A stretch of DNA of 64,000 bases from an uncultured Candidatus Saccharibacteria bacterium (GCA_964385105.1 CAYLMU010000001.1:66252-130251), one strand, 5' to 3'; positions 995-61,812 are shown, counted from the stretch's first letter. The notes: generated by a model not told the origin, from the sequence alone. Program-made: numbers and translations.

Positions 995-1963
995 ATGATA
1001 AAGAAAAAAATTACCATATTTTTTATTTCAGCATTTATACTTACACTTGCTCATAAAAATTATGCTTTAGGAGCAGCAGCATTAAATATTAATCCAACAT
1101 CATGTAACAGTGATACCGGTGTAAAGTTTACCTGGCATGCATCAGGGAGCATTTTGAACCAGATTTATTTAGCGTGGGACTTTTGTGTTCCTACTATACA
1201 GGGAGGTACTTTATCAAACGGATGTGATAGCAAAGACGCTAGAAAAATTGGTGACGGAGATTTTTCAGTTGCTGATTCAGATGAGTATGCTGCCCAATGT
1301 GGAAATCAGGTTACACAATGTACAGGGTCAATAGATGGACCTAATTCAGGAATCGATGACGGACAGGATGTTTATTTAACTGTTACATACAATCTCGTTG
1401 ACGGTGGTAAGTATTATACAGACACACTACACTCACATTGTGAATTTACTACTAACACCGCATGCGTTGATGTAGGAGAACCGTGTGGAATGAACGTAAC
1501 ATGTTGCGGTGAATTTTTAGTATGCGATTATCGACAAGATAATACTTGTGAAGTTATTACAAACGTTTTAGCAGGAGAAGCAGGTGACCCCTGCGGGCCA
1601 GACCGTGCACCTTGTGAATCTGGTTCATGTGTTGAAGGTGTATGCCAAGGCACTGACCCCGATAAAGATCGTGATACTGATAAAAAATTTGATCCCACAT
1701 TATGGAGACAAGATTATGACGGTAAGATTGTTGACTTTGAAACCCTCCTTCAAACTATATATGGCTTATTACTTCCTATTGGCATTGGGCTCATTGCCAT
1801 ACCCCTTATTATCATCAACGGATACAAAATTATGACTAGCCAAGGTGATCCTTCTAAAGTTATGGATGGTAAAGAAGGTTTAACTTCTGCTATAATTGGT
1901 TTGCTATTTATTTTATTATCTATTTGGATAATTAGAATAGTAATTGCAAACTTCTTGCAATAG
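995..1963 (+). CDS. Pilin-fusion protein: signal peptide, a ~230-aa Cys-rich (about 19 Cys) extracellular domain, and a C-terminal VirB2/TrbC-like two-helix pilin module.
   Basis: N-terminus MIKKKITIFFISAFILTLAHKNYALG looks like a signal peptide. Cys-rich motifs include CGMNVTCCGEFLVCDY and PCGPDRAPCESGSCVEGVC. The C-terminus has two hydrophobic helices split by the loop SQGDPSKVMDGKEG, as in the downstream pilin paralogs. Confidence 0.6.
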   Translation: MIKKKITIFFISAFILTLAHKNYALGAAALNINPTSCNSDTGVKFTWHASGSILNQIYLAWDFCVPTIQGGTLSNGCDSKDARKIGDGDFSVADSDEYAAQCGNQVTQCTGSIDGPNSGIDDGQDVYLTVTYNLVDGGKYYTDTLHSHCEFTTNTACVDVGEPCGMNVTCCGEFLVCDYRQDNTCEVITNVLAGEAGDPCGPDRAPCESGSCVEGVCQGTDPDKDRDTDKKFDPTLWRQDYDGKIVDFETLLQTIYGLLLPIGIGLIAIPLIIINGYKIMTSQGDPSKVMDGKEGLTSAIIGLLFILLSIWIIRIVIANFLQ

Positions 1964-1985
1964 TTTATTTATTTAGGAGCAAATA

Positions 1986-2366
1986 ATGCTTAAAAGAGTA
2001 CATGCCCAAGTACCAACAGACATTCAAGACCCGTTGGCCGGACGTTACACCTCGCTTGCTCAAATATTTGGACTTATTACAAATATAGTTATTGGTGTAG
2101 GTGTAGCTTTAACAGTAATATTTTTGATTTTAGCAGGTATACAATACATCACCGCCAAAGGTGATACCAAAGCTGCTGATGCTGCAAGGTCGTCATTAAC
2201 AAATGCTATTATAGGTTTTGTTATTGTTATTGGTGCTATAACTATTAAAATTATTGTACAAAACTTATTAAATGCAGATAACGTAAGTATAGATGGCGTA
2301 ACACCAGGTTCGGGAGGAGGAAGTGGTGCACCACCAATACCACCACCACCAATGCCCAAGCCTTAA
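1986..2366 (+). CDS. VirB2/TrbC-like pilin paralog 1, with a Gly/Pro-rich C-terminal tail (GSGGGSGAPPIPPPPMPKP).
   Basis: RBS AGGAG lies upstream. It has two TM helices separated by a charged loop (KGDTKAADAARSS). The core is near-identical to 2416-2772. Confidence 0.6.
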   Translation: MLKRVHAQVPTDIQDPLAGRYTSLAQIFGLITNIVIGVGVALTVIFLILAGIQYITAKGDTKAADAARSSLTNAIIGFVIVIGAITIKIIVQNLLNADNVSIDGVTPGSGGGSGAPPIPPPPMPKP

Positions 2367-2415
2367 TTTAGGTATACAAATTAGTTTATTAAAGTAAAGG
2401 AGGTGTAATCAAAAA

Positions 2416-2772
2416 ATGTTAAAACTTATAAAACAAGCACATGCCCAAACACAAGGACAAGTACAAACATCTGTTACAGACCCATTAGGAACTAGATTTG
2501 GAAGTGGTACCACATTAGCAAACATATTTGGACTTATAATTAACATAGTTATTGGTGTAGGTGTAGCTTTAACAGTAATATTTTTGATTTTGGCAGGTAT
2601 TCAATATATTACAGCACGAGGTGATACCAAAGCTGCTGATGCTGCAAGGTCGTCATTAACAAATGCTGTAATTGGATTTATTATAGTTCTGGGCGCATTG
2701 ACAATCAGGTTTATTGTACAGAACTTATTAAATGCAGATAACGTAAATATTGAGCAGGTAACAGACTTCTAG
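2416..2772 (+). CDS. VirB2/TrbC-like pilin paralog 2.
   Basis: Strong RBS AAAGGAGG at 2394-2401. About 145 bp (2524-2667) are ~88% identical to 2064-2207, with two perfect 47-50 bp blocks. Confidence 0.6.
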   Translation: MLKLIKQAHAQTQGQVQTSVTDPLGTRFGSGTTLANIFGLIINIVIGVGVALTVIFLILAGIQYITARGDTKAADAARSSLTNAVIGFIIVLGALTIRFIVQNLLNADNVNIEQVTDF

Positions 2773-2804
2773 TAAAGTGCTGCAACGAAAAGAGCGTAAT
2801 TATT

Positions 2805-3125
2805 ATGGATTATATTAACAATTTAAGTAGTAGCCAGGATCCCAGTAGTGGAATGACTGCTTCAACAATGGGAGAATTAATGGGAGTTGTTTTAAACATT
2901 CTCATGGGTTCTGCTATTGCTATAAGCGTCATATCCACTGGGATTGCCGGTATAAAATATATAACAAGCAAAAGCGACCCCAAGGCAAGGGACAGCGCAA
3001 AAAATGCTTTAACGTATGCAGTTATTGCTTCTATTCTCGCCATTGGGGCTTTTGCCGTGAAATTAGCAGTATTAAGTGCTTTCGGAGCCAACGGTGTAAT
3101 TACTAATGGAGTTCCCAATTTTTGA
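2805..3125 (+). CDS. VirB2/TrbC-like pilin paralog 3 (diverged).
   Basis: Same architecture: helix, KSDPKARDSAKNALTYAVI loop, helix. Confidence 0.5.
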   Translation: MDYINNLSSSQDPSSGMTASTMGELMGVVLNILMGSAIAISVISTGIAGIKYITSKSDPKARDSAKNALTYAVIASILAIGAFAVKLAVLSAFGANGVITNGVPNF

Positions 3126-3582
3126 TATACTTAAAAAAAGCTTTATTGCAATTTTATTTGCAACCGTGGTAATCAGTATACAAAACCCGGCTTATGCACA
3201 ATCAGCAGATTGTGTTGGGTATGATCCTAATGACGTAGCATCATTAGCACAAATTGTTTGCCCTGCTGCAAGGTTAGTTAACATTTTATTATACTTTGCT
3301 GGAGCTGTATTTGTTGCAATGATATTTGTAGGTTCTATTAAATATGCAATGTCGCTTGGTGATCCAAAAGGTGCAATAGGTGCAAATCAAACATTAACCT
3401 ACGCTGTAATCGGGCTTATAGCAGTATTGGGAGTATTTTCTATCCTTAATATTATCGCACATCTTTTAGGCCTTACAAATATAGAAAGTTTGAATGTTTT
3501 CAAAACTATTCAAACTAGAATATGTGATTTTCTCATTAGTAATGGTGTCGTAGAGGACGGTGCTAAGATTGCCGGTTGTTAA
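3106..3582 (+). CDS. VirB2/TrbC-like pilin paralog 4, with signal peptide and a longer C-terminal extension.
   Basis: Signal-like N-terminus ending AYAQ; the pilin core is LGDPKGAIGANQTLTYAVIGL flanked by hydrophobic helices. It overlaps the previous gene by 20 nt. Confidence 0.5.
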   Translation: MEFPIFDILKKSFIAILFATVVISIQNPAYAQSADCVGYDPNDVASLAQIVCPAARLVNILLYFAGAVFVAMIFVGSIKYAMSLGDPKGAIGANQTLTYAVIGLIAVLGVFSILNIIAHLLGLTNIESLNVFKTIQTRICDFLISNGVVEDGAKIAGC

Positions 3583-3583
3583 A

Positions 3584-4060
3584 TCAATACGGAACAGGCT
3601 CGTTAGAAATATCTGGGGGCGTGTTGAGATACACATAGTTGATTGTTTCGTTTAGATAATTTCCGTTTACACTTCTTAGAGCAGTTATTTTTAATGTATA
3701 TTCCTGATGATCTTCCCATCCCATGCCTCTTGGAACAAACTTCACTATGTTTGGGTTACTTTCATCGTTTACTATGGAAAATTCCATGTTTGGTTCTATT
3801 GTATATCTAATGGAATTGGATATTATCGGTTCAGAAAATTCAAACCACAAAATTTCATAATCACTCAAAGACTGTGAGCTTCGTTCTGGTGGTGTAATCG
3901 CAATCAAACTTAATTCGGACTCTTTCACAGTATAAGGAGTTTCAATGTCATTATACCTATTAAAATCAATAAAATACGCAATAAATACTAATATTAAGAT
4001 TATAAGCACTATTAAATAGCTTTTGTTGCCTTTAATGAATATGATAAGTTTTTTTGTCAT
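3584..4060 (-). CDS. Bitopic membrane protein: N-terminal TM anchor plus a ~120-aa beta-rich ectodomain. A speculative T4SS assembly factor (VirB8-like role).
   Basis: N-terminal hydrophobic segment YLIVLIILILVFIAYFI. The functional call rests on context only. Confidence 0.4.
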   Translation of the reverse strand: MTKKLIIFIKGNKSYLIVLIILILVFIAYFIDFNRYNDIETPYTVKESELSLIAITPPERSSQSLSDYEILWFEFSEPIISNSIRYTIEPNMEFSIVNDESNPNIVKFVPRGMGWEDHQEYTLKITALRSVNGNYLNETINYVYLNTPPDISNEPVPY

Positions 4061-4093: not shown

Positions 4094-7000
4094 TTATTTA
4101 CATATGTAATCTTCCGGTCTCGCAGGAATAAAATCACCAGGCCCATTAGGTAGAGCCATTTCGAAGTGAACATGTGTGTTATTTCCCCAATCATATAATT
4201 CAGCTGCAGCATCTCCCGGTTTTTTTTCTCCGGTGTAAACAGTTCCTACATGCAATAAAACTAAGATTACTTGTGGATTTCCACGCACGTCAAGTCCCGT
4301 TACAGTAGTAACATTTCCCACATTGCTTGCCCGGGGAGAGGAGACTTGCCAAGTGGTAATACCAGTCATTTCAGGCAAAAAAATCGTGCCACACCCTAGA
4401 GGATGTACATCTTCAGCATACCCATAATATTCGGATTCAGGTGGTGTATTCAAACACTTATTATTTGGTGCCTCGGTGGCAATAGGACTCTTCGGATATG
4501 GCGAAACATATGCAGGTATCGGAAAGCATTGGCCTAAAGAACCGGGTATAGTACTCCAATAAAGATTTGACCCGTGCCTACTAGCTTGTTCCTCATTATT
4601 AATGTAAGATCTTTGCCAAACAGTATAACCTTCTGCAAAGACACACCCGTTAAGACTCTTAACATCTACACTGTGGAATCCACAACGTCTATATTCGCCA
4701 CCACCTTCACTTCTTATGTCACCACCACCAACACCACCACCAATTCCAGCAATAGGATTCCTTTGGGGAATTGCCGTTGTAAAAGCTCCGCCCAACAATA
4801 ATATTAATAAAATAAGACACCCCACAGGTATCCCAACACCGTAAAGCAACGTTTTTGTCATGTAATCATAAGTTTTATCCCATGATTCAATCAGTTGACT
4901 AAAATCACCTTTGAAAAACGCTTTGAACGTTCCTTGTGCGGTATCCATAGTCTTAATCAACACTACATACATTACTTTTCTTACTATTGGTACTAAAAAT
5001 TCAACCAGCGGAGAAGCCACCCCGGCAGTTGCTCCTTCCGCTATTGAAGCTAACAAACGTGCAGTAACCCGGGAAATACCGTCCACAACTCTGTTTGCCA
5101 CAATGCTTTTAATATTAGAAGCAGAACTAACGAGTCGGCCTGCTCGTGTTGTGGTAAACCAATGCTGAAGGTTATTAAGTTTTTCATTAATCTTTTCAAG
5201 GATACCTACGTATCGACGCGAAGGTTTCAATGCACCCCTGTTGTCGACTTTGGTATAAAAAATTCTTTTAATAAAACCCGCCATAATTCCGGGGTCGGCA
5301 ATATCAGCAGCACTAAAACCAAATTTACCGTGATTTTTTGACATCCAATCTTTGAATTTCTGCAAGTTAAAATAAATGGCATCAAATTCGGCTCTCTTAA
5401 ACGGTAAAGTGCCATATCTAGCCGTTAAACTGGCATATAAGGCGTCTAATCCTGCGGTATCACCAATACTCACTCCAGCATGAAGTAATTCTTCGAATGC
5501 TCTAATATCCAACTTTCCGGTGGATAAAGCACTTCCAATGTCTTCAATGATTTTAAAGTGTGAGCCAGCAGTAACATTTCTTAATGCAAAATTTCTTCCT
5601 CCTGCTTCAAAATTTACGTTAAATTTATGCTCAAGCGGTTTAAGTAAAAGAGATCCTAATCCGCCGGCCGTACTTCCCGTGAGTTTAAATCCCCAAAAAA
5701 ATGCGATTCCATTGTCGTCTGCGTAATCTTTGTTTACAACAAAACCTAACCGATGTACTCGGGTCAAAAATTTATTTGACCAATAGGCAGGTGTTAAAAC
5801 TTCAATCCTGTTTTTAAATCTGGGCCACAAATAGGTACTTAATAAGCGCTTTCCTTCAAAAGCTCGTAAAAGCTCCTCTGCAGCAGCATAATCTCTTTCC
5901 TGCTCCAATCTTCTAAAAATAGTTCTTAGTTTTATAATATTATCTGTACCTGTAAAAGCGTCGTTTTCCTCGTTTCGTATATCACGCTCCATATCTCGTA
6001 AAAGTCTTCTATTAACACTCCTGCTAAAAGGATCCCCACCAGCAAGACCTCCTCTGCCAAATATATTTCCTCTACTGCCCACATTTACTATGCTGTTTCT
6101 TGCTTCCGCTATATTTTTAGTTAGTTCGGCTCTAAGAACCAATGACGGTTGCGCTGTTCCCAATCCATCAACCTTTCTTGCAATATCTGCGACATCGCTA
6201 CCGACAGCAACAAATTTATTTAAATCTTCCAAGTAAACTTTGAATGGGTTTATGACTGAGCGTCCTAATCTACGCTGTATAGCTAAACCTTCTGGTGTGT
6301 TATTAAGTTGTTGTAAGAAAGTTTCTGCCTCTCCAATTTTTGCCCTTATAACATTTAAATCAGCTGTGTTTGGGGCATCTTTTATATTTCCCGTGAGTAA
6401 AAATGTATCAAGTTTTTCTTGGAGCGAAGTTTTTTTACCGCCGCTTACTAAGCCTTCATAATCTACAGCCTTTTGTAAAGATGAAATCTTCTCATGAAGC
6501 TCATTTTTTAGTAAAAACATTTGAGCTTCAGGAGTATACGAGGCAGGCGTGACATTTTTTTCTAAATCAGCTTTAAGAGCCTTTGCTGCCGAAGATATAA
6601 CTGCATCATACTTATTTTCCCGTAGAATAACGTTTCGTGAATTTACTTGAAATGATAATATACTATGTTTTAACTTCCTGTATTCACCAATGTCGGGATG
6701 ATCCAAACTTAAGGGGTTGGCAGCAGCATGTACCGCACCGGCAGCTCCAGATCCGTCTAATCTTTGAGCCAACGAGGTTGTTGCCTCATGTTGCAAAGCA
6801 ACATCAATCTCATCAAACTTTTCCTGAAGCCTGCGAATTGGTCTCAGTCTGGACTTATTTCTTGCAGTCCTGTAGATATCAACATCACTCAATACATTTT
6901 CCCACAACTGCTCCCTATTTAAAGTGTCAAAATCGTCCCAGTCGGCTATTGCTTTAAACCAATCCTTTACTGTTTTTTTAAATTGCTCTCCCGGGTCACT

Positions 7001-7330
7001 TAACCAGTCGTTAGGATTTAAGCTAATTGAAATACCAACGGCACCGGGCAAGTCTTCCATAGCCTCGGGTCCGTACAGTTCTAGGGCTTCCGGACTGACT
7101 TCCTTAGTTGGTTTAATTTGAGCCTTTAGTGAACTTTCAAAATCTTTTTTAATTCTTTCAATAAACCATGCCGGAATATCTGTATCTTTTTCGAATGTAT
7201 TAAAAAATTTGCCAAAATCCAATAAATCCAAATCAGGGTTACCTGTAAAACGCCGGCCTCCTGAAGGTCTTTTATATAAAGGTCTGTCTCCTGGGTAATA
7301 CCCGAGATAAAACGGATTTGAACTTGCCAT
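4094..7330 (-). CDS. Large (1078-aa) protein: a ~800-aa N-terminal domain with no signal peptide, a single TM, a Gly-rich linker, and a C-terminal papain-fold cysteine peptidase (CHAP / NlpC-P60 superfamily) cell-wall hydrolase domain.
   Basis: TM segment VGIPVGCLILLILLLGGAFTTAIP. Candidate catalytic Cys lies in GQCFPIP or LGCGTIF, and the His in the VILVLLHVGTVYTG motif. Gram-positive T4SSs carry CHAP/NlpC hydrolases (PrgK/TcpG/TraG-like). Confidence 0.55.
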   Translation of the reverse strand: MASSNPFYLGYYPGDRPLYKRPSGGRRFTGNPDLDLLDFGKFFNTFEKDTDIPAWFIERIKKDFESSLKAQIKPTKEVSPEALELYGPEAMEDLPGAVGISISLNPNDWLSDPGEQFKKTVKDWFKAIADWDDFDTLNREQLWENVLSDVDIYRTARNKSRLRPIRRLQEKFDEIDVALQHEATTSLAQRLDGSGAAGAVHAAANPLSLDHPDIGEYRKLKHSILSFQVNSRNVILRENKYDAVISSAAKALKADLEKNVTPASYTPEAQMFLLKNELHEKISSLQKAVDYEGLVSGGKKTSLQEKLDTFLLTGNIKDAPNTADLNVIRAKIGEAETFLQQLNNTPEGLAIQRRLGRSVINPFKVYLEDLNKFVAVGSDVADIARKVDGLGTAQPSLVLRAELTKNIAEARNSIVNVGSRGNIFGRGGLAGGDPFSRSVNRRLLRDMERDIRNEENDAFTGTDNIIKLRTIFRRLEQERDYAAAEELLRAFEGKRLLSTYLWPRFKNRIEVLTPAYWSNKFLTRVHRLGFVVNKDYADDNGIAFFWGFKLTGSTAGGLGSLLLKPLEHKFNVNFEAGGRNFALRNVTAGSHFKIIEDIGSALSTGKLDIRAFEELLHAGVSIGDTAGLDALYASLTARYGTLPFKRAEFDAIYFNLQKFKDWMSKNHGKFGFSAADIADPGIMAGFIKRIFYTKVDNRGALKPSRRYVGILEKINEKLNNLQHWFTTTRAGRLVSSASNIKSIVANRVVDGISRVTARLLASIAEGATAGVASPLVEFLVPIVRKVMYVVLIKTMDTAQGTFKAFFKGDFSQLIESWDKTYDYMTKTLLYGVGIPVGCLILLILLLGGAFTTAIPQRNPIAGIGGGVGGGDIRSEGGGEYRRCGFHSVDVKSLNGCVFAEGYTVWQRSYINNEEQASRHGSNLYWSTIPGSLGQCFPIPAYVSPYPKSPIATEAPNNKCLNTPPESEYYGYAEDVHPLGCGTIFLPEMTGITTWQVSSPRASNVGNVTTVTGLDVRGNPQVILVLLHVGTVYTGEKKPGDAAAELYDWGNNTHVHFEMALPNGPGDFIPARPEDYICK

Positions 7331-7393: not shown

Positions 7394-8818
7394 ATGCTCG
7401 GTAAAACATTTATCAAAGTCGGAATAACATTTACTTTTTCTTTATTATTAATAATATTGGCAACATCTAAAACTTATGCTCAAGATTCAGTATGTACCCC
7501 AAGTGAGGGTTTATACACAAGAATCGTCCAGGCACTTGATAACCTGGACATTAGAAGAACAACGGTTAACTTTTTAGTCTCGGCTGTGACAGATGTTCCA
7601 CTTCAAGCTGCCGCCAACGGAACACAGGATGACATTTTTCACTGTATGGGTTATATAGCAACTATGAACGCTGGAGGTAATCAGGGAGGAAGCACCGGTG
7701 CTGATGTATTGGCAAAATTGGGTTTATCTACTGATGGCTGTACCCCTGATGAGGATTACTGTGAAGCTTTGTTTAATACTTATGAGGATGTAAGGATACA
7801 ATCCGGAGCCAACCCGGCTTCCGTGGCCTTTTATAATAAACGGGCAAATAGTCGTGTGTCAGGCAGCCTTGTGGGACTTGTAAATATGGCTGAAAATGCT
7901 ACTTATCAGCCGGTTCCAGTGAACCTTGCTTTTTATTTTAACAAAGAAGCACAAAAGTTACCTTTTGTGGGCACAGCGTTTGCACAAACTGCAGGAGACT
8001 TTACAGGGCCGTTTTTAAACTTAACATACGATCTCTGGAAAATATTTAGAGATGTAGCATACGGAGTTATGGCAGTAATCATGATTATAGTGGGCATCAT
8101 GATTATGACAAGAAAAAAGTTGAACCCTCAAACAGCGGTAACTATGCAGTACGCTCTTCCCCGAATAATAATAGCTTTAGTTTTAATAACTTTTAGCTAC
8201 GTAATAGGAGCCACCATTGCTAGTACAGCCTGGGTTCTAAAATTTAGCGCAGATAAAATTATTATACAACTCTTTATAGATTCTCAGGCTCAAAGTACAC
8301 AACACGTAAGCTTCATGTATGCAGCCGGCTTTATGGTGACTTTAGTTATTGGGGTTATTATGATGTTTACAAGCGGTGTGGGAGTAGTGTATGCGGCACT
8401 TTTCATTGTTGGATTTATATTAACTTTAATAACTTTCCTTATCGTATTTCTTAAAATGTTGATGCTGTATTTACGCATGTTAATTAATATAATTGCGGCG
8501 CCTCTAACGTTCACCATGGCAGCGCTCCCCGGTAAAGATGATATGATGATGAACTGGTTTAAACAGATGCTTGTATATACTTTATCAATTTTTGGAATGA
8601 CCGCTGTCATATCAATTACAAGAATTGTAAGTGCTGTTATGCTGTTAAATATAGCGGATAATGGTGGTAACACTATATTTGACGGTGGAAGGGGAGCAGG
8701 AGCTTTCTTAGTCTTTGGCCCGATATTACTTTTCATTATTCTAATATACGGATTGAATACTGCCAGAAAATTACCAAACAAAATCGAAGCCGCCATCATG
8801 GGTCCCAAAAAGCGCTAA
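7394..8818 (+). CDS. VirB6/TrbL-like polytopic membrane protein: signal peptide, a ~200-aa extracytoplasmic domain, and 5-6 TM helices.
   Basis: Signal peptide ending TYAQ, then multiple long hydrophobic helices in the C-terminal half. Assignment rests on T4SS context and topology. Confidence 0.45.
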   Translation: MLGKTFIKVGITFTFSLLLIILATSKTYAQDSVCTPSEGLYTRIVQALDNLDIRRTTVNFLVSAVTDVPLQAAANGTQDDIFHCMGYIATMNAGGNQGGSTGADVLAKLGLSTDGCTPDEDYCEALFNTYEDVRIQSGANPASVAFYNKRANSRVSGSLVGLVNMAENATYQPVPVNLAFYFNKEAQKLPFVGTAFAQTAGDFTGPFLNLTYDLWKIFRDVAYGVMAVIMIIVGIMIMTRKKLNPQTAVTMQYALPRIIIALVLITFSYVIGATIASTAWVLKFSADKIIIQLFIDSQAQSTQHVSFMYAAGFMVTLVIGVIMMFTSGVGVVYAALFIVGFILTLITFLIVFLKMLMLYLRMLINIIAAPLTFTMAALPGKDDMMMNWFKQMLVYTLSIFGMTAVISITRIVSAVMLLNIADNGGNTIFDGGRGAGAFLVFGPILLFIILIYGLNTARKLPNKIEAAIMGPKKR

Positions 8819-8887: not shown

Positions 8888-10621
8888 ATGCCCATTAACG
8901 ATGTACAAAAAACCAATAAACAACACGCTGTACCTCAAAACATAATGGATGTTGAATTCAAAATAATAGGGGATCTTACTATGCGGCAGTTTTTTTACCT
9001 TTTGGTTTTTTTTGGATTTGCATATTCTATTTTTACTTTGTATAACGGTTTTCTTAAATGGCCATTAATTTTATTTTTAGTATGTGCAGGGTTGGCATTT
9101 GCCTTTTTGCCAATAGAGGAGAGAAGTCTAGATCAATGGGTTGTTAATTCATTTAGGGCCATTTATAAAGACACACAATACGTATGGCGTAAAACCCCTG
9201 AAATACCTCCGGCATTTTCGTTTGAAAATATGAGTGTTGTTAAACAAGAATTAATTACTTTAACACCTACATCAAGTAGAAGAAAGCTTGAAGAATTTTT
9301 AGAAGCTCAAACAGATAAAACCGTTATCGACCCTTTGGACATTCCGGAAGTTTCTTATATAAAAATGGTTAGACAGGGGTTTAAAAATGCCGCGCCGGTA
9401 ATAGAAGTGGAAGGTGAGGTTGAACCAACATTTCCGGCATATGATGAGTCTGCCAAAAATCAGGCACAATCTTCAGAAGAACCAACACAAAACGTTCCTG
9501 TGCAAGAAGTGCCACTACAAACCCCGTCAACATCTACACCTGCACCTATACAACCGGAACCTGCTAAACAATCCATATCCACTGACACACCAAAACAAGA
9601 TCAGCCACAACAAAAACCCACAAAACCTCCTGAAGAGAAAAAGCACCATCACCCATCAATAAAACTTCCAAAACTTCCTCATGTACCACGTCCGCTATTG
9701 CCAAAACATGTAGATGAACCTATTGAGGTATCAAAAGGGCCATTCCTTGCACCGATTACGCCCGATCAGCACTCAGGCCGAAAATTCACAAGTTTATTAC
9801 CAAAACAAGGGGAAATTATCTTGCCAATCAGAGGAGAAACGGTAATACAAACTACGGAAGAGGCGGAAATTGAAGAAGATATTGAAGAAAAAGCAGAACA
9901 ATTAAGAAAACTTTTATCTCATATACGACAAACCGAAAATATTCCTGAAACCACAAGAATTGAAAGCCAAATTGAAGAGAAATCTATAGACATAAAACCA
10001 GATGAAAAAGAAGCAATACAGCCCGAAGTTCAAGACACACTCGAGCAATTAAAAAGAGACAATGAAAGATTAAAAAAAGAAATTGAACAGTTAAAACGCG
10101 AAATAACCAAACCTCAAACATCAACCGAAAGGTCTGAGAAAATTACAACGTTAAAGCGTCTTGAACACGAACAGCATGAAAAAGAAGAGGCATATTCTTT
10201 GATTAAAAATAAACTTTCAAACATCCAGGAAAAAATATTTGTAAAACGTCAACCTGAATCTGAAAATATAAGTAATGAAAATGACGTACAGGAATGGAGT
10301 ACGCCTTCTAATGCAGTTGAACCTACATATGCTAAAATGAAACCCTTAAACGAAACACCGAATTTATTATCGGGTGTAGTTGTTGACCCGGCAGATAAAA
10401 GACTTGAGGGAATAATTTTAATAGTTAAAAATAACAAAGACGAGCCGGTTAGAGCTTTAAAAACAAATCAAACCGGACAATTTAGCATAAGCACACCGTT
10501 AGCTAATGGAGTTTATACTGTTGAAACAGATAAATCGAAACGAACTAACTATACCTTTGATATAATTAAAATCGTTACAAAAGGAGAGGTAATCCCTCCT
10601 ATAGAAATAAAAGGAAAATAA
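8888..10621 (+). CDS. PrgI/VirB3-like two-TM N-terminal domain fused to a Pro/Gln-rich linker, a coiled coil and a C-terminal beta-sandwich (carboxypeptidase-regulatory-like) domain.
   Basis: The N-terminal motif IIGDLTMRQFFYLLVFFGFAYSI, followed by a second TM, resembles the PrgI family. Also present: a low-complexity PTKPPEEKKHHHPSIKLPKLP region, a coiled coil LEQLKRDNERLKKEIEQLKREI, and a C-terminal GVVVDPADKRLEGIILIV beta domain. Confidence 0.45.
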   Translation: MPINDVQKTNKQHAVPQNIMDVEFKIIGDLTMRQFFYLLVFFGFAYSIFTLYNGFLKWPLILFLVCAGLAFAFLPIEERSLDQWVVNSFRAIYKDTQYVWRKTPEIPPAFSFENMSVVKQELITLTPTSSRRKLEEFLEAQTDKTVIDPLDIPEVSYIKMVRQGFKNAAPVIEVEGEVEPTFPAYDESAKNQAQSSEEPTQNVPVQEVPLQTPSTSTPAPIQPEPAKQSISTDTPKQDQPQQKPTKPPEEKKHHHPSIKLPKLPHVPRPLLPKHVDEPIEVSKGPFLAPITPDQHSGRKFTSLLPKQGEIILPIRGETVIQTTEEAEIEEDIEEKAEQLRKLLSHIRQTENIPETTRIESQIEEKSIDIKPDEKEAIQPEVQDTLEQLKRDNERLKKEIEQLKREITKPQTSTERSEKITTLKRLEHEQHEKEEAYSLIKNKLSNIQEKIFVKRQPESENISNENDVQEWSTPSNAVEPTYAKMKPLNETPNLLSGVVVDPADKRLEGIILIVKNNKDEPVRALKTNQTGQFSISTPLANGVYTVETDKSKRTNYTFDIIKIVTKGEVIPPIEIKGK

Positions 10622-10622
10622 C

Positions 10623-11321
10623 ATGCCCATGATTAAAGCTACTACACAACAACATCTCGATATTGAAGACATTAAAGACAACATGGTTATTTTAAAAAAC
10701 GGGGCTGTTAGTGTAGTTCTTGAAACAACAGCCGTTAACTTTGACCTGTTATCCGAAATTGAACAAGACGCTATGATTGCAGCATTTTCTATGTTGTTAA
10801 ACTCAATATCGTTTCCAATTCAGGTTGTTGTGAGATCAAAAAGACTTGATATAACAAAATATCTTGAAAAAGTGCATAGGGTAGAGCAAAAAATAACCGA
10901 CCCGCTTCTTAAAATCCAGGCTCAATATTACCGCAAATTCGTACAGGAAGTTATTGAAAAAAATGATGTATTAGATAAAAAATTTTATGTGGTTATAAGC
11001 TATGGAGGCTCAGGTACGGTACAAACAGGCAAAAACCCGTTTGACTGGGTTTTGGTTTTGTTTGGTCTGCACAACCGTCGCACAAATGTAGACGTGGAAA
11101 GTGTTTTGCAAAAAGCACGTACAGATTTGGGGCCAAAAATTGACCACGTTTCTGCGGAATTTAACAGACTTGGAGTAAAAACCCGACAATTGAGCACACA
11201 AGAGTTGGTTGAATTATACTTTGATATATACAACCCAACAACGCTACACGGCCAAAGAATAAGAACAAGTGTAAGTGATTATAAAACAGCAATAGTAAAT
11301 CCTGCTATAGTTGAGGAATAA
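10623..11321 (+). CDS. VirB4 N-terminal-domain-like protein (232 aa): either a separate ORF or the split 5' part of VirB4.
   Basis: The motif HLDIEDIKDNMVILKNGAVSVVLETTAVNFDLLSEIEQDAMIAAFSMLLNSISFPIQVVVRS resembles the extreme N-terminus of Gram-positive VirB4 proteins. Its stop lies 2 nt before the next ATG, in the -1 frame. Confidence 0.45.
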   Translation: MPMIKATTQQHLDIEDIKDNMVILKNGAVSVVLETTAVNFDLLSEIEQDAMIAAFSMLLNSISFPIQVVVRSKRLDITKYLEKVHRVEQKITDPLLKIQAQYYRKFVQEVIEKNDVLDKKFYVVISYGGSGTVQTGKNPFDWVLVLFGLHNRRTNVDVESVLQKARTDLGPKIDHVSAEFNRLGVKTRQLSTQELVELYFDIYNPTTLHGQRIRTSVSDYKTAIVNPAIVEE

Positions 11322-11323
11322 AT

Positions 11324-13312
11324 ATGAAAATACCTGCAGTAACTTTATTTAAAAAAAAGCATAAAGAACAACCTGATACTCAAGCACAAGCACAAGTCAC
11401 AGAACCTGCAAATCAAAAAAAGCCTGCTGAAGTTTTGGCTGAAGGAATGATTAACGTAAAAGACATTATTGCGCCGCCGGCAATTGAAGTTGATTTTAAT
11501 TTTTTAAGGATAGGCAATACTTATTACAGAACTTTGTTTGTATCAGGTTATCCAAGGTTTGTGGGCGCCAACTGGTTATCGCCTGTGATTAACTTTGACC
11601 ACTCTCTTGATCTTTCAATGTTTTATTATCCTGTTGAATCAAAAGGAATTCTTGATGACTTAAGAAGAAAAATTACCGAAATGGAAGCTACAAGCATGTC
11701 TAATAGAGAAAAGGGTAAAATTAGCGACCCTACAGTAGAAATTGCATTAGGGGATGCTAAAGCTTTGCAGGAACAATTGGTAAAAGGTGTTGAGAAATTC
11801 TTTCAGTTTTCTTTTTATATCACTATACCCGCCGACTCGCTTGATGAACTTGAAAAAGTAACTAAGAAGCTTGAAGCCACACTCGGCTCACTTTTGTTAA
11901 TTTCAAAAACATCTACATTACAAATGGAAGACGCTTTTCAATCAACAATTCCCGCTGCCATGGATAAAATGCTTATCACAAGAAACATGGATACTACCAG
12001 TTTAGCTACAACATTTCCATTCACATCATCCGACCTTACATCAGACGAAGGAATAATGTACGGAATAAACAGGCACAATGGGTCATTAATTGTTTTTGAC
12101 AGGTTTTCGCTTGAAAATGCAAATAGTGTAGTATTTGCTAAATCCGGTGCCGGTAAATCATACATGATAAAACTTGAAGCATTGCGATTGATGGTATTTG
12201 GAGCAGAGATACTAATTATCGACCCCGAAGAGGAATACAGAGCATTGTGTGATGCTGTAGGGGGTAATTATATTAGCTTCGCAGCAAACTCCCCATCAAA
12301 AATAAATCCTTTTGACCTATCGGGAATTGCAACTGAAGGTGAAAACGAATTGGGTCAAAAACTTTTATCTTTACACACACTATTTAAGCTAATGTTGGGC
12401 GATCTTAATCCAACAGAAGAAGCGTTACTTGACCGTGCTTTAATGGAAACTTACAGAATAAAAGGTATAACAACCGATCCTGATACACAACGTTCAAAAG
12501 AGCCTCCAATTATGGAAGATTTATATAAAGTGCTGTTAGGAGCTGAAGAACCCGAAGCAAGAAGTATGGCTGAAAGACTTGAAAAATACATTAAAGGTTC
12601 GTTAACAGGTATATTTGACAATCAGTCCACAGTTAACCTCGGCAGTAGAATGACGGTATTTTCAACACGTAATCTGGAAGATATATTAAAACCCATTGCC
12701 TACTACATAATTCTTGATTTTGTGTGGACAAGAATTAAAAAGGATTTAAAAAAGCGTATATTAATTGTTGAAGAAGCATGGTCTTTGCTTCAAGACGAGG
12801 ACAGTGCAAGATTTTTATATGGTGTAGCAAAAAGAGCTAGAAAATACTATTTAGGTCTTACAACCATTACCCAGGACGTCCAGGACTTTCTAAGTTCTGA
12901 TTTTGGGAAAGCTATTGTTACAAACTCATCCATACAAATTTTATTAAAACAGCATCCGGCCTCAATTGACCAAATAGCCGAAACATTTTACCTATCTGAA
13001 GGAGAAAGAAGACTTTTACTATCTGCAGATAAAGGTGAAGGATTATTTTTTGCAGGTTCAAATCACGTTTCAGTTAAAGTAAAGGCTTCTGACGCTGAAC
13101 ATAAATTAATAACTACAAACCCGCAGGAAATTCTTGAAATGAGAAATGAACAGATTAATAAAGCTTCTGTTGATTTGCAAAAACCTGTTTACAAACCGTT
13201 TGAGCGCTTTGAGAGTAGCAAATATGATGAAATCGAAACACCACAGCAAAACCCGCAAACAAACAATGAACCAAACACTTTTCCTCAAAATCCCGAAGAA
13301 CAGTTAGCTTAG
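11324..13312 (+). CDS. virB4: VirB4/TraE-family T4SS ATPase.
   Basis: Walker A FAKSGAGKSY, a Walker B / DEAW-like motif ILIVEEAWSLL, and an N-terminal VirB4 signature IAPPAIEVDFNFLRIGNTYYRTLFVSGYPRFVGANWLSP. Confidence 0.75.
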   Translation: MKIPAVTLFKKKHKEQPDTQAQAQVTEPANQKKPAEVLAEGMINVKDIIAPPAIEVDFNFLRIGNTYYRTLFVSGYPRFVGANWLSPVINFDHSLDLSMFYYPVESKGILDDLRRKITEMEATSMSNREKGKISDPTVEIALGDAKALQEQLVKGVEKFFQFSFYITIPADSLDELEKVTKKLEATLGSLLLISKTSTLQMEDAFQSTIPAAMDKMLITRNMDTTSLATTFPFTSSDLTSDEGIMYGINRHNGSLIVFDRFSLENANSVVFAKSGAGKSYMIKLEALRLMVFGAEILIIDPEEEYRALCDAVGGNYISFAANSPSKINPFDLSGIATEGENELGQKLLSLHTLFKLMLGDLNPTEEALLDRALMETYRIKGITTDPDTQRSKEPPIMEDLYKVLLGAEEPEARSMAERLEKYIKGSLTGIFDNQSTVNLGSRMTVFSTRNLEDILKPIAYYIILDFVWTRIKKDLKKRILIVEEAWSLLQDEDSARFLYGVAKRARKYYLGLTTITQDVQDFLSSDFGKAIVTNSSIQILLKQHPASIDQIAETFYLSEGERRLLLSADKGEGLFFAGSNHVSVKVKASDAEHKLITTNPQEILEMRNEQINKASVDLQKPVYKPFERFESSKYDEIETPQQNPQTNNEPNTFPQNPEEQLA

Positions 13313-14433
13313 TTATTAATATGCATGGGAGCCATAACATGCAAGAATACAGTGTTTTCAGCCGGTTTTATTAAACATGGAGTAACATTGTCGTTGGCAT
13401 GAAAAATCAGCTTCTCAAATTTATTGTTTGATAGAAAATCAAGCAAAAATCTAGCGTTAAACATAATTTCCAGCTCCTTTTCCATCTCGCCTAAAACTTC
13501 TGCAGAAAATTCGGTGTGATTTTCACCTGTTTCTTGAGCCGAAGATGTTACCCTTATATAACCCTCAGGGCTAATAATTAATTTTAAAGTATTATTTTCA
13601 TCCTTTTTTGAAAAAACGTGAGTGAGTTTAACAGCCTCAAATAAGTCCTGAGACATAAATGCTGCCTGCACACTTGTTTGGGATGGAATTATACGTTTGT
13701 AATCAGGATACATTCCATCAATAACCCTTGTAGCTATAACCGTATCTTCACATTCAAAAATACACAAATTTTCATTCTCATTAAGATATACTTTTATATT
13801 TTCTCCACAACTGCTAAAAATCCGGGCTGTTTCAAGTAGTGTTTTTGCCGGGAGAATCAACGAGAAACTTTCGGCTTGGGATTCAATATTTAAAATTCGT
13901 TCGCTTAGCCTAAATCCGTCGGAAGCGGCAATATATAAATTACCTTCATTGTAATTTAAGTAAATTCCTGTAAATATAGGCCTTGAACTGTCGTTTGAAA
14001 CGGCAAAGCCAACCTGAGACACAGCTTCTGCAAACTCTTTTGGTGAAATTTCAAATAACGGGTTTGACGTTGTTACTTCAGGCAAAGTAGGGTAATCAAC
14101 CGAATTTATGCCGTTTATTTTAGATTTTGTCTTTCCGGCGGTAATATGCACAATATCGTTTTCCATACTGATTACAACCTGATCGCTTGATAAATTTGAT
14201 ATAAATTCGGAAAGAATCCTTGCAGGTACAGTCACAGAACCTTCTTCTTCAATAGAAGCTCCTACAAATGATGTTATGGTGGTATCAAGGTCGGTACCGG
14301 CAATTTGCAGACGTCCGTCTTTTGAAACTATAAGCACGTTAGACAACACAGGCATCGAGTGCTTAATCGGCACAGCTTTAGATACAATACCGAGACTTTT
14401 AACTAAGTTTTCTTTTAGGCAAGTAAATTTCAT
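13309..14433 (-). CDS. dnaN: DNA polymerase III beta sliding clamp.
   Basis: Colinear similarity to E. coli DnaN along its length (MKFT..., the TDL motif, FPDY-like region). Its stop codon overlaps the virB4 stop. Confidence 0.9.
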   Translation of the reverse strand: MKFTCLKENLVKSLGIVSKAVPIKHSMPVLSNVLIVSKDGRLQIAGTDLDTTITSFVGASIEEEGSVTVPARILSEFISNLSSDQVVISMENDIVHITAGKTKSKINGINSVDYPTLPEVTTSNPLFEISPKEFAEAVSQVGFAVSNDSSRPIFTGIYLNYNEGNLYIAASDGFRLSERILNIESQAESFSLILPAKTLLETARIFSSCGENIKVYLNENENLCIFECEDTVIATRVIDGMYPDYKRIIPSQTSVQAAFMSQDLFEAVKLTHVFSKKDENNTLKLIISPEGYIRVTSSAQETGENHTEFSAEVLGEMEKELEIMFNARFLLDFLSNNKFEKLIFHANDNVTPCLIKPAENTVFLHVMAPMHINN

Positions 14434-14442
14434 AAATATATT

Positions 14443-14895
14443 TTAATCAGTTGGCTTTAAAACTATATGTCTGTCAAAACCCTCGCCGATACTAAAGGTT
14501 TCAATATCATCATAGCCGCTTATAAACTCATGAATGTGTTTTCTCTCATATGCAGTCATTGGAGGTAAATGTACTTCTTCTTTAAAAAAACGTGCTCTGT
14601 CAATATAGCTTTTTGCCATTAATTCAAGCTTTTCTTCTTTTGCATCAACATAATTATTTATATCAACGGTAATATTTTTCCACTCACCAAATTTTCTATG
14701 CACAGCTAAACTTAAAAAATGCTGTAGACCACTTAATGAAGTACCGCGATAACCGATTAAAAAACTTAAGTCATCACCTTTAATGTCAATGTTTATAGCA
14801 TCACCATCCGCACTTACCTCAAATGTAGGCTCAATTTTTAAATGCGAAAAAACTTCTTTTAAGGTGTTTTTTATAAATTCGTTAATTTCCTGCAT
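14443..14895 (-). CDS. khpB: Jag/KhpB RNA-binding protein (KH + R3H domains).
   Basis: R3H-like C-terminus and the conserved position downstream of yidC. Confidence 0.75.
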   Translation of the reverse strand: MQEINEFIKNTLKEVFSHLKIEPTFEVSADGDAINIDIKGDDLSFLIGYRGTSLSGLQHFLSLAVHRKFGEWKNITVDINNYVDAKEEKLELMAKSYIDRARFFKEEVHLPPMTAYERKHIHEFISGYDDIETFSIGEGFDRHIVLKPTD

Positions 14896-15643
14896 TTTGC
14901 TTTTTTGTTCTTTTTCCTAAAACTAAATATGTTTGGGCAAGTGAAAAGACTGTTGTAGTTAAGAAATATAATACAGCCCCTGCCGGCAGTGAAATACTTA
15001 TAATTACAGATATTACTGGCATTACATATAACATCTGCTCCTGCATATTATACGCAATATCATCCGTTTTGTCAGGAGTTTGCTCGGCTATTTTTTCGGC
15101 TTTTTTAGTAAACCCTAATGACATTTTAGAAGTAAAAAACTGAAGTATTCCAACTGACAAAGCCAAAATATAAGGAAACCCTTCCGGTTTGGTAAGATCA
15201 AACCATAAAAATTCCGTATTAATTGTACTTGTGGTGAATTTAACAAAATCAAAGTAAAGTTCATGGTTCAATGACATCATGTCTTCTGTTCTGGAAATTA
15301 TAGATATTGCATTGTACAAAGCATAAATCACAATAAACATGGGTATTTGTGTTAAACATCCTGCAGCAGGATTTAGGCCATGTTCTTTAAAAAGTTCCAT
15401 TTGTGCTTCCGCCTGCTTTTTTTTGTTATTTTTGTATTTTTCTTTGATTTTATCTATTTGAGGTTGTAATTCACGCTGCTTTTTCATTTGCCTCATAGAT
15501 GGTACGAGTGTGGGTATTAGAATTACTCTAACTATAATTGTTAATAAAATAATGGCTATACCTAAATTTCCGGTTAATTGGTATAAACCGGCCAAAGTAT
15601 TTAATATTGGTTCAACTAAAATTGTGTGTAAAAATCCGCTCAT
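14882..15643 (-). CDS. yidC: Membrane protein insertase YidC (short Gram-positive/Oxa1-like form).
   Basis: Multi-TM protein with the conserved YidC core, sitting in the canonical rnpA-yidD-yidC-jag operon. Confidence 0.85.
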   Translation of the reverse strand: MSGFLHTILVEPILNTLAGLYQLTGNLGIAIILLTIIVRVILIPTLVPSMRQMKKQRELQPQIDKIKEKYKNNKKKQAEAQMELFKEHGLNPAAGCLTQIPMFIVIYALYNAISIISRTEDMMSLNHELYFDFVKFTTSTINTEFLWFDLTKPEGFPYILALSVGILQFFTSKMSLGFTKKAEKIAEQTPDKTDDIAYNMQEQMLYVMPVISVIISISLPAGAVLYFLTTTVFSLAQTYLVLGKRTKKQNAGN

Positions 15644-15645
15644 AA

Positions 15646-15861
15646 TTATTTAACAGGGTCGTAACCGCCCTTACTAAAGGGGTTGCATCTTATAACTCTC
15701 CAAACACCCATTAAACCACCTTTAAAAATACCATATTTTTCTACAGCTTCATAAGTGTAGCGAGAACAGCTTGGCTCAAAACGGCATAATTTAATTCCGT
15801 ATCTACCTGGAGAAAGGTAAGTTTTGTAAAACCTTAGTAAAGTCAGAATTAAGCTCTTCAT
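15646..15861 (-). CDS. yidD: Membrane protein insertion efficiency factor YidD.
   Basis: YLSPGRYGIKLCRFEPSCSRYTYEAVEKYG matches the YidD signature. Confidence 0.85.
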   Translation of the reverse strand: MKSLILTLLRFYKTYLSPGRYGIKLCRFEPSCSRYTYEAVEKYGIFKGGLMGVWRVIRCNPFSKGGYDPVK

Positions 15862-16162
15862 AACTTTTTCCTAAAACTTTATACTTTGGATACAATACTA
15901 TCCAATAACCATTTTCTATTTTATCAAGATTATTTCTTATTATTTCTCTAAACAATCTTTTTATTCTGTTTCTTTTAGCCGAAGATTTATGTATACGATT
16001 TGAAACTACAATACCAAATTTAGACGGACCCTCATAATTATAGGGCTTTATATAATTTATAAAAAAAAGGTCTCCGGAAGACGAGGTTTTATGTTTTTCA
16101 GATAAATACTTAACTTTTCTGAACTCATAATTTGACCTCAAGCGATTATCACTGGGTAACAT
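15803..16162 (-). CDS. rnpA: RNase P protein component.
   Basis: Basic ~119-aa protein between rpmH and yidD; the operon position is conserved. Confidence 0.8.
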   Translation of the reverse strand: MLPSDNRLRSNYEFRKVKYLSEKHKTSSSGDLFFINYIKPYNYEGPSKFGIVVSNRIHKSSAKRNRIKRLFREIIRNNLDKIENGYWIVLYPKYKVLGKSYEELNSDFTKVLQNLPFSR

Positions 16163-16171
16163 GCTATAAAG

Positions 16172-16324
16172 TTACTTCTTTTTTAGAAGAACAACAAGTT
16201 TTTTTCTACCTTTTGCACGTCGATTTTTAAGAACACGTTTTCCGCCGGGCGAGGCCATGCGTTTTAAAAATCCGTGTTTTTTTACTCTTTTTCTTTTTTT
16301 TGGTTGCCAAGTTCTTTTAGGCAT
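16172..16324 (-). CDS. rpmH: 50S ribosomal protein L34. True start is the internal ATG; the track ORF is 14 codons too long.
   Basis: [45 protein letters not shown] is a canonical L34 sequence. Confidence 0.9.
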
Positions 16325-16402
16325 AACAACAGGCATATTAAAGCAATTAAGGTAATTAGTCAACAAAAGAAAGCGTAGTTCTAACCATAATTGCTTTATT
16401 TA

Positions 16403-16411
16403 TGTGGATAA
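16403..16411. promoter_or_regulatory. Perfect DnaA box (TGTGGATAA) in the rpmH-dnaA intergenic region, overlapping the spurious upstream ATG of the dnaA ORF.
   Basis: Exact 9-mer match to the reverse-complement DnaA box consensus. Confidence 0.6.
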
Positions 16412-16431
16412 CATTTATAGACTTATACACA

Positions 16432-38623: not shown

Positions 38624-38697
38624 GCCGGGGTAGTTTAATTTTAAAACCACTCAATTGTTTTGAGAAAATGTAGGTGAAAGCCCTACCCCCGGCTCCA
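38624..38697 (+). ncRNA. tRNA-like cloverleaf (tRNA(UGU)-like) with genome-encoded CCA but non-canonical D and T loops.
   Basis: - Perfect 7-bp acceptor stem GCCGGGG / CCCCGGC, then T + CCA
- U8 and A14 present
- 4-bp D stem GTTT / AAAC
- 4-bp anticodon stem with a 7-nt loop ATTGTTT (U33-UGU)
- 5-bp T stem GTAGG / CCTAC
- D loop lacks GG, and the T loop is TGAAAGC instead of TTCRANY
- TATAAT at 38607-38612 lies just upstream
GC-rich stems stand out against the AT-rich surroundings. Confidence 0.3.
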
Positions 38698-61670: not shown

Positions 61671-61760
61671 ATGGCGGAAGGAGGGGGATTCGAACCCCCG
61701 AGGCGCTTGCGCGCCGCGTCGCTTTCCAGGCGAGCCGATTAGTCCACTCTCGCATCCTTC
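61671..61760 (-). tRNA. tRNA-Ser (anticodon GGA), class II with long variable arm, CCA encoded.
   Basis: The reverse complement folds as GGAAGGA ... CTGGAAA anticodon loop ... GGGGGTTCGAATCCCCC TCCTTCC G CCA, with a perfect acceptor stem and a canonical T arm. Confidence 0.85.
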
Positions 61761-61812
61761 CAAGGTTATGGCAGCTTACATTTTAACATTTGCATGATTA
61801 GATTAAATAGAA

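Follow-up and report, generated by a model that had tools for sequence, protein, structure and literature searches.

The window, a stretch of 64,000 nucleotides of DNA from an uncultured Candidatus Saccharibacteria bacterium (GCA_964385105.1 CAYLMU010000001.1:66252-130251), carries a very large gene lying among genes of a type IV secretion system (T4SS). The gene is an uninterrupted ATG-to-stop open reading frame on the minus strand (4094..7330) encoding 1078 amino acids, according to the open reading frame list and the translation, and its start codon is credible because the N-terminus of the protein, MASSNPFY.GYYPGD, is kept in homologues. A 100% identical protein (P0001) is present in public data. 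The initial annotation had described a giant T4SS-associated cell wall hydrolase with no signal peptide, about 800 unrecognised residues, a single transmembrane helix, a Gly-rich linker and a C-terminal papain-fold peptidase domain. Much of this layout is borne out: the N-terminus is not hydrophobic, the linker is present at residues 856–880, and ~760 residues are without a Pfam, NCBIfam or significant PHROG match. The whole 1078-residue protein gave zero Pfam matches even at E≤10, none in NCBIfam, none significant in PHROG and nothing significant in a PADLOC scan. The features of the gene, with the evidence for each, are as follows; pLDDT is the predicted local distance difference test of the AlphaFold2 models.

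4094..7330, minus strand: whole open reading frame of the putative giant T4SS-associated hydrolase, 1078 residues (open reading frame list, translation)
7268..7330, minus strand: extreme N-terminal motif MASSNPFYLGYYPGDRPLYKR, residues 1–21, inside the disordered segment 1–36 (alignment and model pLDDT)
5060..7222, minus strand: large N-domain, residues 37–757, mostly alpha-helical with a small beta insert at 541–587 (AlphaFold2 model)
4943..5059, minus strand: moderately hydrophobic helical hairpin, residues 758–796 (Kyte-Doolittle, AlphaFold2)
4766..4852, minus strand: transmembrane anchor, residues 827–855 (Kyte-Doolittle, AlphaFold2)
4691..4765, minus strand: juxtamembrane motif AIPQRNP and flexible Gly-rich linker, residues 856–880 (sequence, pLDDT)
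4430..4690, minus strand: N-terminal extension of the peptidase domain, residues 881–967, with GHGSNxYW (H919), C896, C935 and C959 (38-sequence alignment, AlphaFold2)
4097..4429, minus strand: M23/LytM-fold core, residues 968–1078 (Foldseek, profile against PDB)

Structural modelling shows that the C-terminal domain has an M23/LytM fold of the lysostaphin type. The AlphaFold2 model of the domain, calculated from an alignment of 38 family sequences that are only 22–46% identical to the query, has a pLDDT of 88.9 and a predicted template modelling score (pTM) of 0.86. When this model was compared with the PDB by Foldseek, the top 24 matches were all of M23 fold, with probabilities of 0.66–1.00 (≥0.89 for 22 of them) and TM-scores of up to 0.51 on the target. 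The M23-fold structures matched were lysostaphin, LytM, EnpA, phi29 gp13, Csd3, the LytM domain of PrgK (PDB 8s0u), DipM, LasA, beta-lytic protease and LECT2. A profile of the C-domain family run against PDB sequences gave DipM as the best match (5e-4) and ShyA as the next (9e-4), followed by StM23, EnpA, zoocin A and LytM. The family motifs LLH and HVHxE align with the M23 motifs 'YxHL' and 'HLHFE' (DipM, ShyA, StM23, LytM and lysostaphin), the family YGYAxD aligns with the Asp of the M23 HxxxD motif, and with hhalign the second half of the domain aligns to lysostaphin. As modelled, the domain is ~200 residues long, is a single hydrolase module and constitutes the only folded extracellular domain, which is M23-like. 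SLT, lysozyme and glucosaminidase domains found no match in the 1078-residue protein in either Pfam or NCBIfam.

The papain-type identity given to this domain in the initial annotation (CHAP or NlpC/P60), in which Cys935 or Cys980 would act together with His1027, was rejected. The three strings quoted in its favour (GQCFPIP, LGCGTIF and LLHVGTVYTG) are all present in the C-terminal domain, Cys935 and His1027 are conserved, and distant family members such as P0004 carry a real CHAP domain at the same position. However, neither CHAP (PF05257) nor NlpC_P60 (PF00877) matched even at E≤10, no papain-like fold was found among the Foldseek matches of the domain at E≤1, and the confident model matches M23-fold structures only. 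Cys980, in LGCGTIF, is not conserved in the family, and Cys935, in GQCFPIP, belongs to a set of four near-invariant cysteines compatible with disulfide pairing. His1027, in LLHVGTVYTG, is indeed invariant; its counterpart in the alignment is, however, the catalytic His of the M23 'xxHL' motif. With no Cys/His dyad in a papain fold, the papain reading is refuted at the level of fold by the criterion of the initial annotation itself and is left extremely improbable. In ~40% of the family members sampled, the position of the domain is occupied by a CHAP-like module whose Cys and His are conserved, and it is these paralogous proteins, not the present gene, that the papain guess fits.

Residues invariant in the 38 C-domains are H919, G920, Y924, P939, G970, A972, D974, P986, W994, G1005, H1027, H1053, H1055, E1057, P1072 and E1073, and four cysteines (C896, C935, C959 and C1077) are near-invariant; we read these four as putative disulfide cysteines. 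The motifs of the M23/LytM-fold core are YYGYAxD (D974), LLH (H1027), HVHFE (H1053, H1055 and E1057), PE (1072–1073) and C1077. Compared with peptidase family M23 (lysostaphin, LytM, EnpA and ShyA, and, in M23A, LasA and beta-lytic protease), the domain has in common the beta-rich fold and the aligned 'xxHL' His, HxHxE and first-motif Asp; it differs in having Gly for the first HxxxD His, a ~90-residue extension with GHGSNxYW, and a PF01551 score below detection. LasA, which contains disulfides, is likewise an extracellular, disulfide-containing domain, as the C-domain is read here. Of the five canonical M23 active-site residues, four do not vary in the 38 divergent sequences, nor do an additional His and a Glu, and because this invariance holds at such low identity we consider the C-domain more likely to be catalytically active than degenerate. 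The activity predicted as most likely is that of a zinc endopeptidase cutting peptidoglycan cross-links. The idea of a T4SS-associated cell wall hydrolase put forward in the initial annotation is supported.

The transmembrane helix at residues 827–855 has a Kyte-Doolittle 19-residue mean of up to 2.67 and gives the highest hydrophobicity peak across 132 family members. The single helix of the initial annotation is thus present, while a weaker hydrophobic stretch at residues 758–796, where the 19-residue mean peaks at 1.78, had gone unmentioned. This second peak lies ~65 residues before the transmembrane helix family-wide and is K/R-rich on both flanks. Across the family, Lys and Arg together amount to 3.85 per 25 residues ahead of the hydrophobic hairpin, to 3.1 per 20 residues in the loop leading to the transmembrane helix and to only 0.94 per 20 residues beyond it. 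This positive-inside pattern argues for an anchor with the N-terminus inside and the C-terminus outside (N-in/C-out), with the first hydrophobic segment not crossing, and the hairpin probably lies at the membrane interface or re-enters the membrane from the cytoplasmic face.

The distribution of cysteine points the same way, and N-in/C-out is the topology predicted from charge and cysteine statistics together. In 128 family members, the N-part contains 0.04 cysteines per 100 residues (98 of the 128 have none) and the tail contains 2.98 per 100 residues, the tail count being even in 97 of the 128. The query has no cysteine in its 757-residue N-domain versus six in the 223-residue C-domain (4097–4765), with a window background of 0.46%. 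The tail is very likely extracytoplasmic. The N-part is most simply taken as cytoplasmic, although depletion of cysteine would also suit an exported, unfolded state. The predicted topology supports a layout in which a very large N-region faces the cytoplasm, a single helix is the anchor and the C-terminal enzyme domain lies outside.

In the full-length AlphaFold2 model, built from a 50-sequence alignment (pLDDT 79.6, pTM 0.70), the N-domain (residues 37–757) is folded and mostly helical, with pLDDT mostly 80–97. It is followed by a hairpin of helices 729–767 and 772–807, a continuous helix 811–853, the disordered linker and then the M23-like domain. Residues 1–36 are disordered, and pLDDT falls below 50 for residues 11–36 and 850–878. 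Foldseek searches of the PDB and BFVD found no significant structural match for the N-domain, and its profile retrieved only generic coiled-coil or low-complexity matches among PDB sequences. The best full-length structural match is a weak one, to the cyanophage A4 pre-ejectosome protein 9k2v_A, which has an M23 domain (E 8e-3); full-length matches to cyanophage and tape-measure proteins have TM-scores of about 0.1 and owe their detection to the M23 domain and to helicity in general. The N-terminal motif, with the consensus M-A-x-x-NP-[FL]-Y-PGYYPGD, stands at the very start of most of 152 family sequences. Residues G10, Y12, P13 and G14 hardly vary among 50 homologues, and in some members the motif is duplicated in tandem (for example, MANNPLYPGYSPKK..NPIYPGY). 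The motif resembles a short linear peptide that serves in docking or recognition.

Only 4–5 proteins came from a word-indexed search for homologues, also when a 50-sequence profile served as the query. The family was revealed by HMMER, run exhaustively against 1.84 billion cluster representatives (clusters at 50% identity): 349 proteins scored E≤1e-3, of which 139 reached E≤1e-30, so that the family comprises at least 349 clusters, and nearly all members are 1000–1500 residues long. The best 150 members share the N-terminal motif, the long N-domain, one dominant transmembrane helix and the Gly-rich linker. Directly after the transmembrane helix lies a juxtamembrane motif, A-I-[ST]-P-x-[DN]-P-[TA]-[RK], which is present across the hydrolase tail types and takes the form AIPQRNP in the query (window 4745–4768, residues about 853–860); it could mark a site of processing or act as a structural cap. 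What follows the linker varies. Among 152 family sequences the tail is M23-like, as in the query, in 70 and CHAP-like in 61. Cys and His are conserved in 92% of the CHAP-like cluster (n=61), of which P0004 matches Pfam CHAP at 3e-7. One member, P0104, has a canonical M23 tail (PF01551 at 1.2e-13), one has an SLT-like IESGG motif as judged by eye, and the tails of a few are without assignment. That hydrolase modules are exchanged on a constant N-domain argues that the tail has been selected for cleaving the wall.

Three otherwise unrelated proteins, P0130, P0142 and P0133, likewise end in the M23-like domain of the query (GHGSNxYW ... YGYAxD ... HxHxE), and the first two of them begin with a classical signal peptide, which also speaks for an N-in/C-out topology of the query. 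Since it is found in unrelated architectures, the domain is an independent, mobile extracellular module. Two family members, P0010 (917 residues) and P0031 (928 residues), stop straight after the transmembrane helix and lack a hydrolase tail; a contig end may have cut them short, or they may be natural variants without a tail whose hydrolase is encoded separately. With tblastn, the protein had no match in a plasmid collection and none in 50,697 phage records. A pattern scan of genome contigs, which was not a survey, found only four loci, labelled as WWE3 and Saccharibacteria metagenome-assembled genomes; together with the low GC content (~35%), these labels fit an origin among the ultrasmall Patescibacteria. 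The proteins form a large, unnamed, Patescibacteria-type T4SS protein family.

The association of the gene with a T4SS, already noted in the initial annotation, is upheld by its neighbours:

995..3582, plus strand: array of five VirB2-like T4SS pilin genes (PF18895)
3584..4060, minus strand: small co-oriented downstream gene, 158 residues, with an N-terminal transmembrane anchor and a ~120-residue extracellular domain (open reading frame, transmembrane profile)
7394..8818, plus strand: divergent partner gene, 474 residues, with a signal peptide, a ~200-residue extracellular domain and at least five transmembrane helices (transmembrane profile)
8888..13312, plus strand: T4SS core operon encoding PrgI/VirB3-like (577 residues), TraC-like (232 residues) and VirB4 ATPase (662 residues) proteins (Pfam)

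The pilins, PrgI, the TraC-like gene and VirB4 all lie within 6 kb of the giant gene. The 474-residue partner and the PrgI/VirB3-like, TraC-like and VirB4 genes make up a four-gene operon divergent from it. Three of the five pilins score above the curated PF18895 cutoff of 26.6 bits (31.7, 33.9 and 35.7) and two below it (25.8 and 17.4). The first pilin gene of the array (995–1963, plus strand) encodes 322 residues with a signal peptide, a Cys-rich N-region of ~240 residues and a C-terminal T4SS_pilin domain (249–313), unlike the remaining four, which are short. The Pfam matches of the core operon are PF12666, PF19044, PF12846 and PF01935. The TraC-like label is given by position, PF26593 being found in the gene of 232–233 residues at three other loci (L001, L002 and L004), while the 232-residue open reading frame of the window has no Pfam match. 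The PrgI/VirB3-like protein (8888–10621, plus strand, 577 residues) has a long low-complexity middle rich in Pro, Gln, Glu and Lys and ends in a beta domain resembling CarboxypepD_reg (E 5.6e-6, which falls short of the Pfam cutoff).

Homologues of the giant protein with 20–51% identity keep this neighbourhood, with pilins downstream and, where the contig allows, PrgI, the TraC-like gene, VirB4 and origin genes; synteny with VirB4 is kept in L001, L002 and L004. A gene of 161–170 residues stands at the position of the 158-residue gene in these three loci and in L007, and the 158-residue protein may act together with the hydrolase or regulate it. Homologues of the 474-residue partner (455–475 residues, 30–61% identity) are encoded divergently upstream of the giant gene in seven loci, including those of a member with a CHAP tail (L003) and of the member with a canonical M23 tail (L010), where the identity is 31–32%. 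For the partner, neither Pfam nor the PDB sequences gave a match, and hence no VirB6/TrbL assignment; its topology alone suggests a candidate divergent VirB6-like channel subunit. At the latter two loci, a very large unannotated gene (1254 residues at 4777–8541 in L003; 1424 residues at 480–4754 in L010) lies beside the membrane-partner gene of 455–470 residues, at the position held in the window by the PrgI/TraC-like/VirB4 operon.

The T4SS cluster adjoins dnaN, khpB/jag, yidC, rnpA and dnaA (window 13309–17835), and since it abuts the dnaN-dnaA genes it is placed at the replication origin. Origin-proximal T4SS have been reported for some Patescibacteria (PMC12102498), and the locus is the origin-proximal, pilin-rich, relaxase-less T4SS described for this group (PMC12102498, PMC10633639). 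A MurT/GatD pair (window 18258–20179, plus strand), consisting of a Mur ligase with a MurT_C domain and a CobQ-type amidotransferase, implies amidated, Gram-positive-type peptidoglycan stem peptides and so bears on the bonds that the hydrolase could cut. Elsewhere in the window, which has a GC content of ~35%, a 1036-residue fusion of an NAD-dependent epimerase/dehydratase with DUF4012 (23363–26473, plus strand) contains no cysteine. ARAGORN finds tRNA genes at 38624–38697 and 61672–61761 (Thr-TGT and Ser-GGA), and an Rfam scan of the whole window at gathering thresholds reported no family, tRNA included.

Hydrolases of monoderm T4SS are membrane-anchored (PMC11323569, PMC12857230). PrgK of the Enterococcus faecalis plasmid pCF10 has an intracellular N-domain, a transmembrane helix (residues 254–274) and extracellular LytM, muramidase and CHAP domains, and its LytM domain is degenerate and metal-free, with neither the HxxxD nor the HxH motif (PMC11323569). 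This VirB1-like protein of the DELTA class, which belongs likewise to a monoderm-type, MPF-FATA-related T4SS cluster, shares with the query, as predicted for the latter, an intracellular N-domain, a single transmembrane helix and an extracellular hydrolase part, and it too has a LytM-fold domain; the likeness to TraG of pIP501 (ALPHA class) and Orf14 of Tn916 (BETA class) is looser. The topology called inverted in the initial annotation is thus the standard one for monoderm VirB1-like hydrolases, already described for PrgK (PMC11323569). The claim in that annotation of an N-domain larger than in known T4SS hydrolases is sound: ~826 strongly conserved residues precede the transmembrane helix, about three times the 253 poorly predicted residues of PrgK (PMC11323569). 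Moreover, the query has one hydrolase module, with neither the muramidase/SLT nor the CHAP domain of PrgK, and its LytM-fold domain keeps the HxH, the catalytic His and the Asp. What is unusual compared with known hydrolases is therefore the size and conservation of the intracellular part, the single exchangeable head, and a LytM-fold head that is apparently catalytic with a rebuilt first motif. Because no SLT, lysozyme or glucosaminidase domain is matched and the extracellular domain is M23-like, the protein would be a functional analogue of VirB1 and not a homologue.

A probable counterpart of the family, likened here by its published description, is SEML1_0007 of Southlakia epibionticum ML1, also in the Saccharibacteria. 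This protein of 1113 residues has no Pfam hit, is encoded beside virB4 near the replication origin and is essential in transposon sequencing; its C-terminal ~155 residues were assigned by structure to the ECOD Hedgehog/DD-peptidase group, and its full-length AFDB neighbours are named as M15B or M23 peptidase-domain proteins (PMC10633639). That a protein of similar architecture is essential is indirect evidence that the query may be required for T4SS function. SEML1_0007 differs from the query in the class of its C-terminal peptidase and in lying downstream of virB4, where a lysozyme gene follows. Phage tape-measure and ejection proteins (9k2v_A and phi29 gp13) are likewise long, largely helical and Cys-poor, carry an M23 module and serve to bring a tube through the wall, whereas the query has no phage gene context and its N-domain is a folded multi-helix structure rather than an extended coil. 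Homology to them was rejected on the chromosomal T4SS context near dnaA, the absence of a tblastn phage match and a TM-score ≤0.1 outside M23. An extended VirB6/TrbL subunit was also rejected, one strong transmembrane helix and a weak hairpin standing against the five or more helices required, a topology shown instead by the divergent 474-residue neighbour.

We propose, with somewhat better than even confidence, that the protein is a dedicated T4SS cell wall hydrolase, functionally analogous to VirB1, with a giant cytoplasmic docking domain. The gene, its context, the fold, the conserved residues and the family with its modular tails are shown; the topology, catalytic activity, target wall and docking role are as we infer them. 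Residues 1–826 would be cytoplasmic, with helix 827–855 serving as the anchor and the ~25-residue Gly-rich linker tethering a disulfide-stabilised M23/LytM domain of ~200 residues outside. This domain, with H919 replacing the usual HxxxD histidine as a ligand, would cut the peptide cross-links of the producer's own peptidoglycan and so open a local gap in the wall for the T4SS channel and the VirB2-like pilus. The helical cytoplasmic domain and the NPFYPGYYPGD peptide would dock to VirB4, PrgI, the TraC-like protein or the divergent polytopic partner, and docking would confine wall cutting to the assembly site. Few canonical VirB1 homologues are located near virB4 in Patescibacteria, and it has been suggested that their role is taken by other hydrolases (PMC12102498).

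A number of points weigh against this proposal. The Pfam M23 model (PF01551) does not match the 1078-residue protein even at E≤10, and the first-ligand motif HxxxD is incomplete: D974 is invariant, but the canonical His position is held by an invariant Gly, G970. The invariant H919 of GHGSNxYW lies 55 residues upstream, in the ~90-residue extension with its conserved cysteines, and it is a candidate, by way of a guess, for the missing first zinc ligand. The proposed set would then be D974, H1055 and probably H919 as metal ligands, with H1027 and H1053 as catalytic histidines; spacings of the His and Asp ligands other than HxxxD are known in M23A enzymes. In addition, the second hydrophobic segment is transmembrane-like (≥1.9) in 23% of family members, and a topology with a hairpin of two transmembrane helices would place both domains on the same side of the membrane. 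Such a topology is less likely, as both flanks of the first segment are K/R-rich. The N-domain is without a detectable relative of known function in Pfam, NCBIfam, PHROG, PDB and BFVD, the docking role ascribed to it is purely inferred, and the wall to be cut is only presumably the producer's and not the host's. Lastly, the degenerate LytM domains of PrgK and DipM are non-catalytic regulators (PMC11323569).

A rival explanation is a structural or regulatory T4SS subunit, whose non-catalytic LytM domain would bind peptidoglycan or activate another hydrolase and whose main job would be scaffolding across the membrane. The absent HxxxD histidine and the unmatched Pfam M23 model would suit such a protein, as would the analogues EnvC, NlpD, DipM and the LytM domain of PrgK; the regulatory, degenerate DipM is the best profile match, and the degenerate PrgK domain is among the fold matches. 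A very large conserved N-domain and a conserved divergent membrane partner also point to a structural role. Against it, the four active-site residues, the extra His and the Glu are invariant throughout the 38 sequences, and the PrgK domain has lost both HxxxD and HxH (PMC11323569), unlike the query. Catalysis is favoured further because the tail is replaced in other members by a CHAP-like module that keeps Cys and His or by a Pfam-significant M23 domain. As in PrgK, most active-site residues have been lost from other degenerate LytM domains. We consider a non-catalytic subunit unlikely.

Also quite unlikely is a host-directed weapon, in which the protein or its processed C-part would be exported or presented by the T4SS at the contact between epibiont and host and would cut the host wall, letting the pilus or channel reach the host membrane. 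The swapping of C-terminal modules among M23-like, CHAP-like and canonical M23 would then be an adaptation to host wall chemistries, and the juxtamembrane motif could serve as the processing site. The N-part, whose cysteine content lies about ten-fold below the window background, as is common for proteins that pass narrow channels, and the strictly conserved motif at its extreme N-terminus would be an export-competent region and signal, as in phage ejection and tape-measure M23 proteins, to one of which the weak best full-length structural match was obtained. In favour of this reading, the T4SS of Patescibacteria is relaxase-less and is needed for epibiotic growth (PMC12102498, PMC10633639). 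However, the N-domain is predicted to be a well-folded multi-helix structure rather than an extended coil of the tape-measure kind, the positive-inside charge distribution is that expected of a stable bitopic membrane protein, and a linker of ~25 residues gives a short reach. The phage matches, moreover, are insignificant outside M23, and tblastn gave no phage or plasmid match. Export signals of T4SS substrates are usually C-terminal.

Rather unlikely, too, is that the protein is an undescribed, Patescibacteria-specific core T4SS subunit, in which the Cys-free domain of ~800 residues and the N-terminal peptide would couple the ATPase machinery to an exchangeable wall-cutting head. In its boldest form this subunit would be a host-wall 'drill': the protein, or a released head, would go through or along the VirB2-like pilus and breach the host wall, and module swapping would track host chemistry. 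The M23-like head would also be a new M23 subtype, taking its first zinc ligand from the N-terminal extension and not from HxxxD.

Patescibacteria cannot grow epibiotically without their T4SS, which has no relaxase and produces pili (PMC10633639, PMC12102498). The family described here plausibly fills the gap left by the canonical VirB1 hydrolases, which surveys of these bacteria found to be mostly missing near virB4. The ~800-residue N-domain and the invariant N-terminal peptide provide handles for finding the docking partner of the hydrolase, and a head that has Gly in place of the HxxxD His while its other catalytic residues are invariant offers a test case for rebuilt M23 active sites. The exchangeable M23-like, CHAP-like and canonical M23 heads link the secretion machine to wall chemistry, whether that of the cell itself or that of its host.

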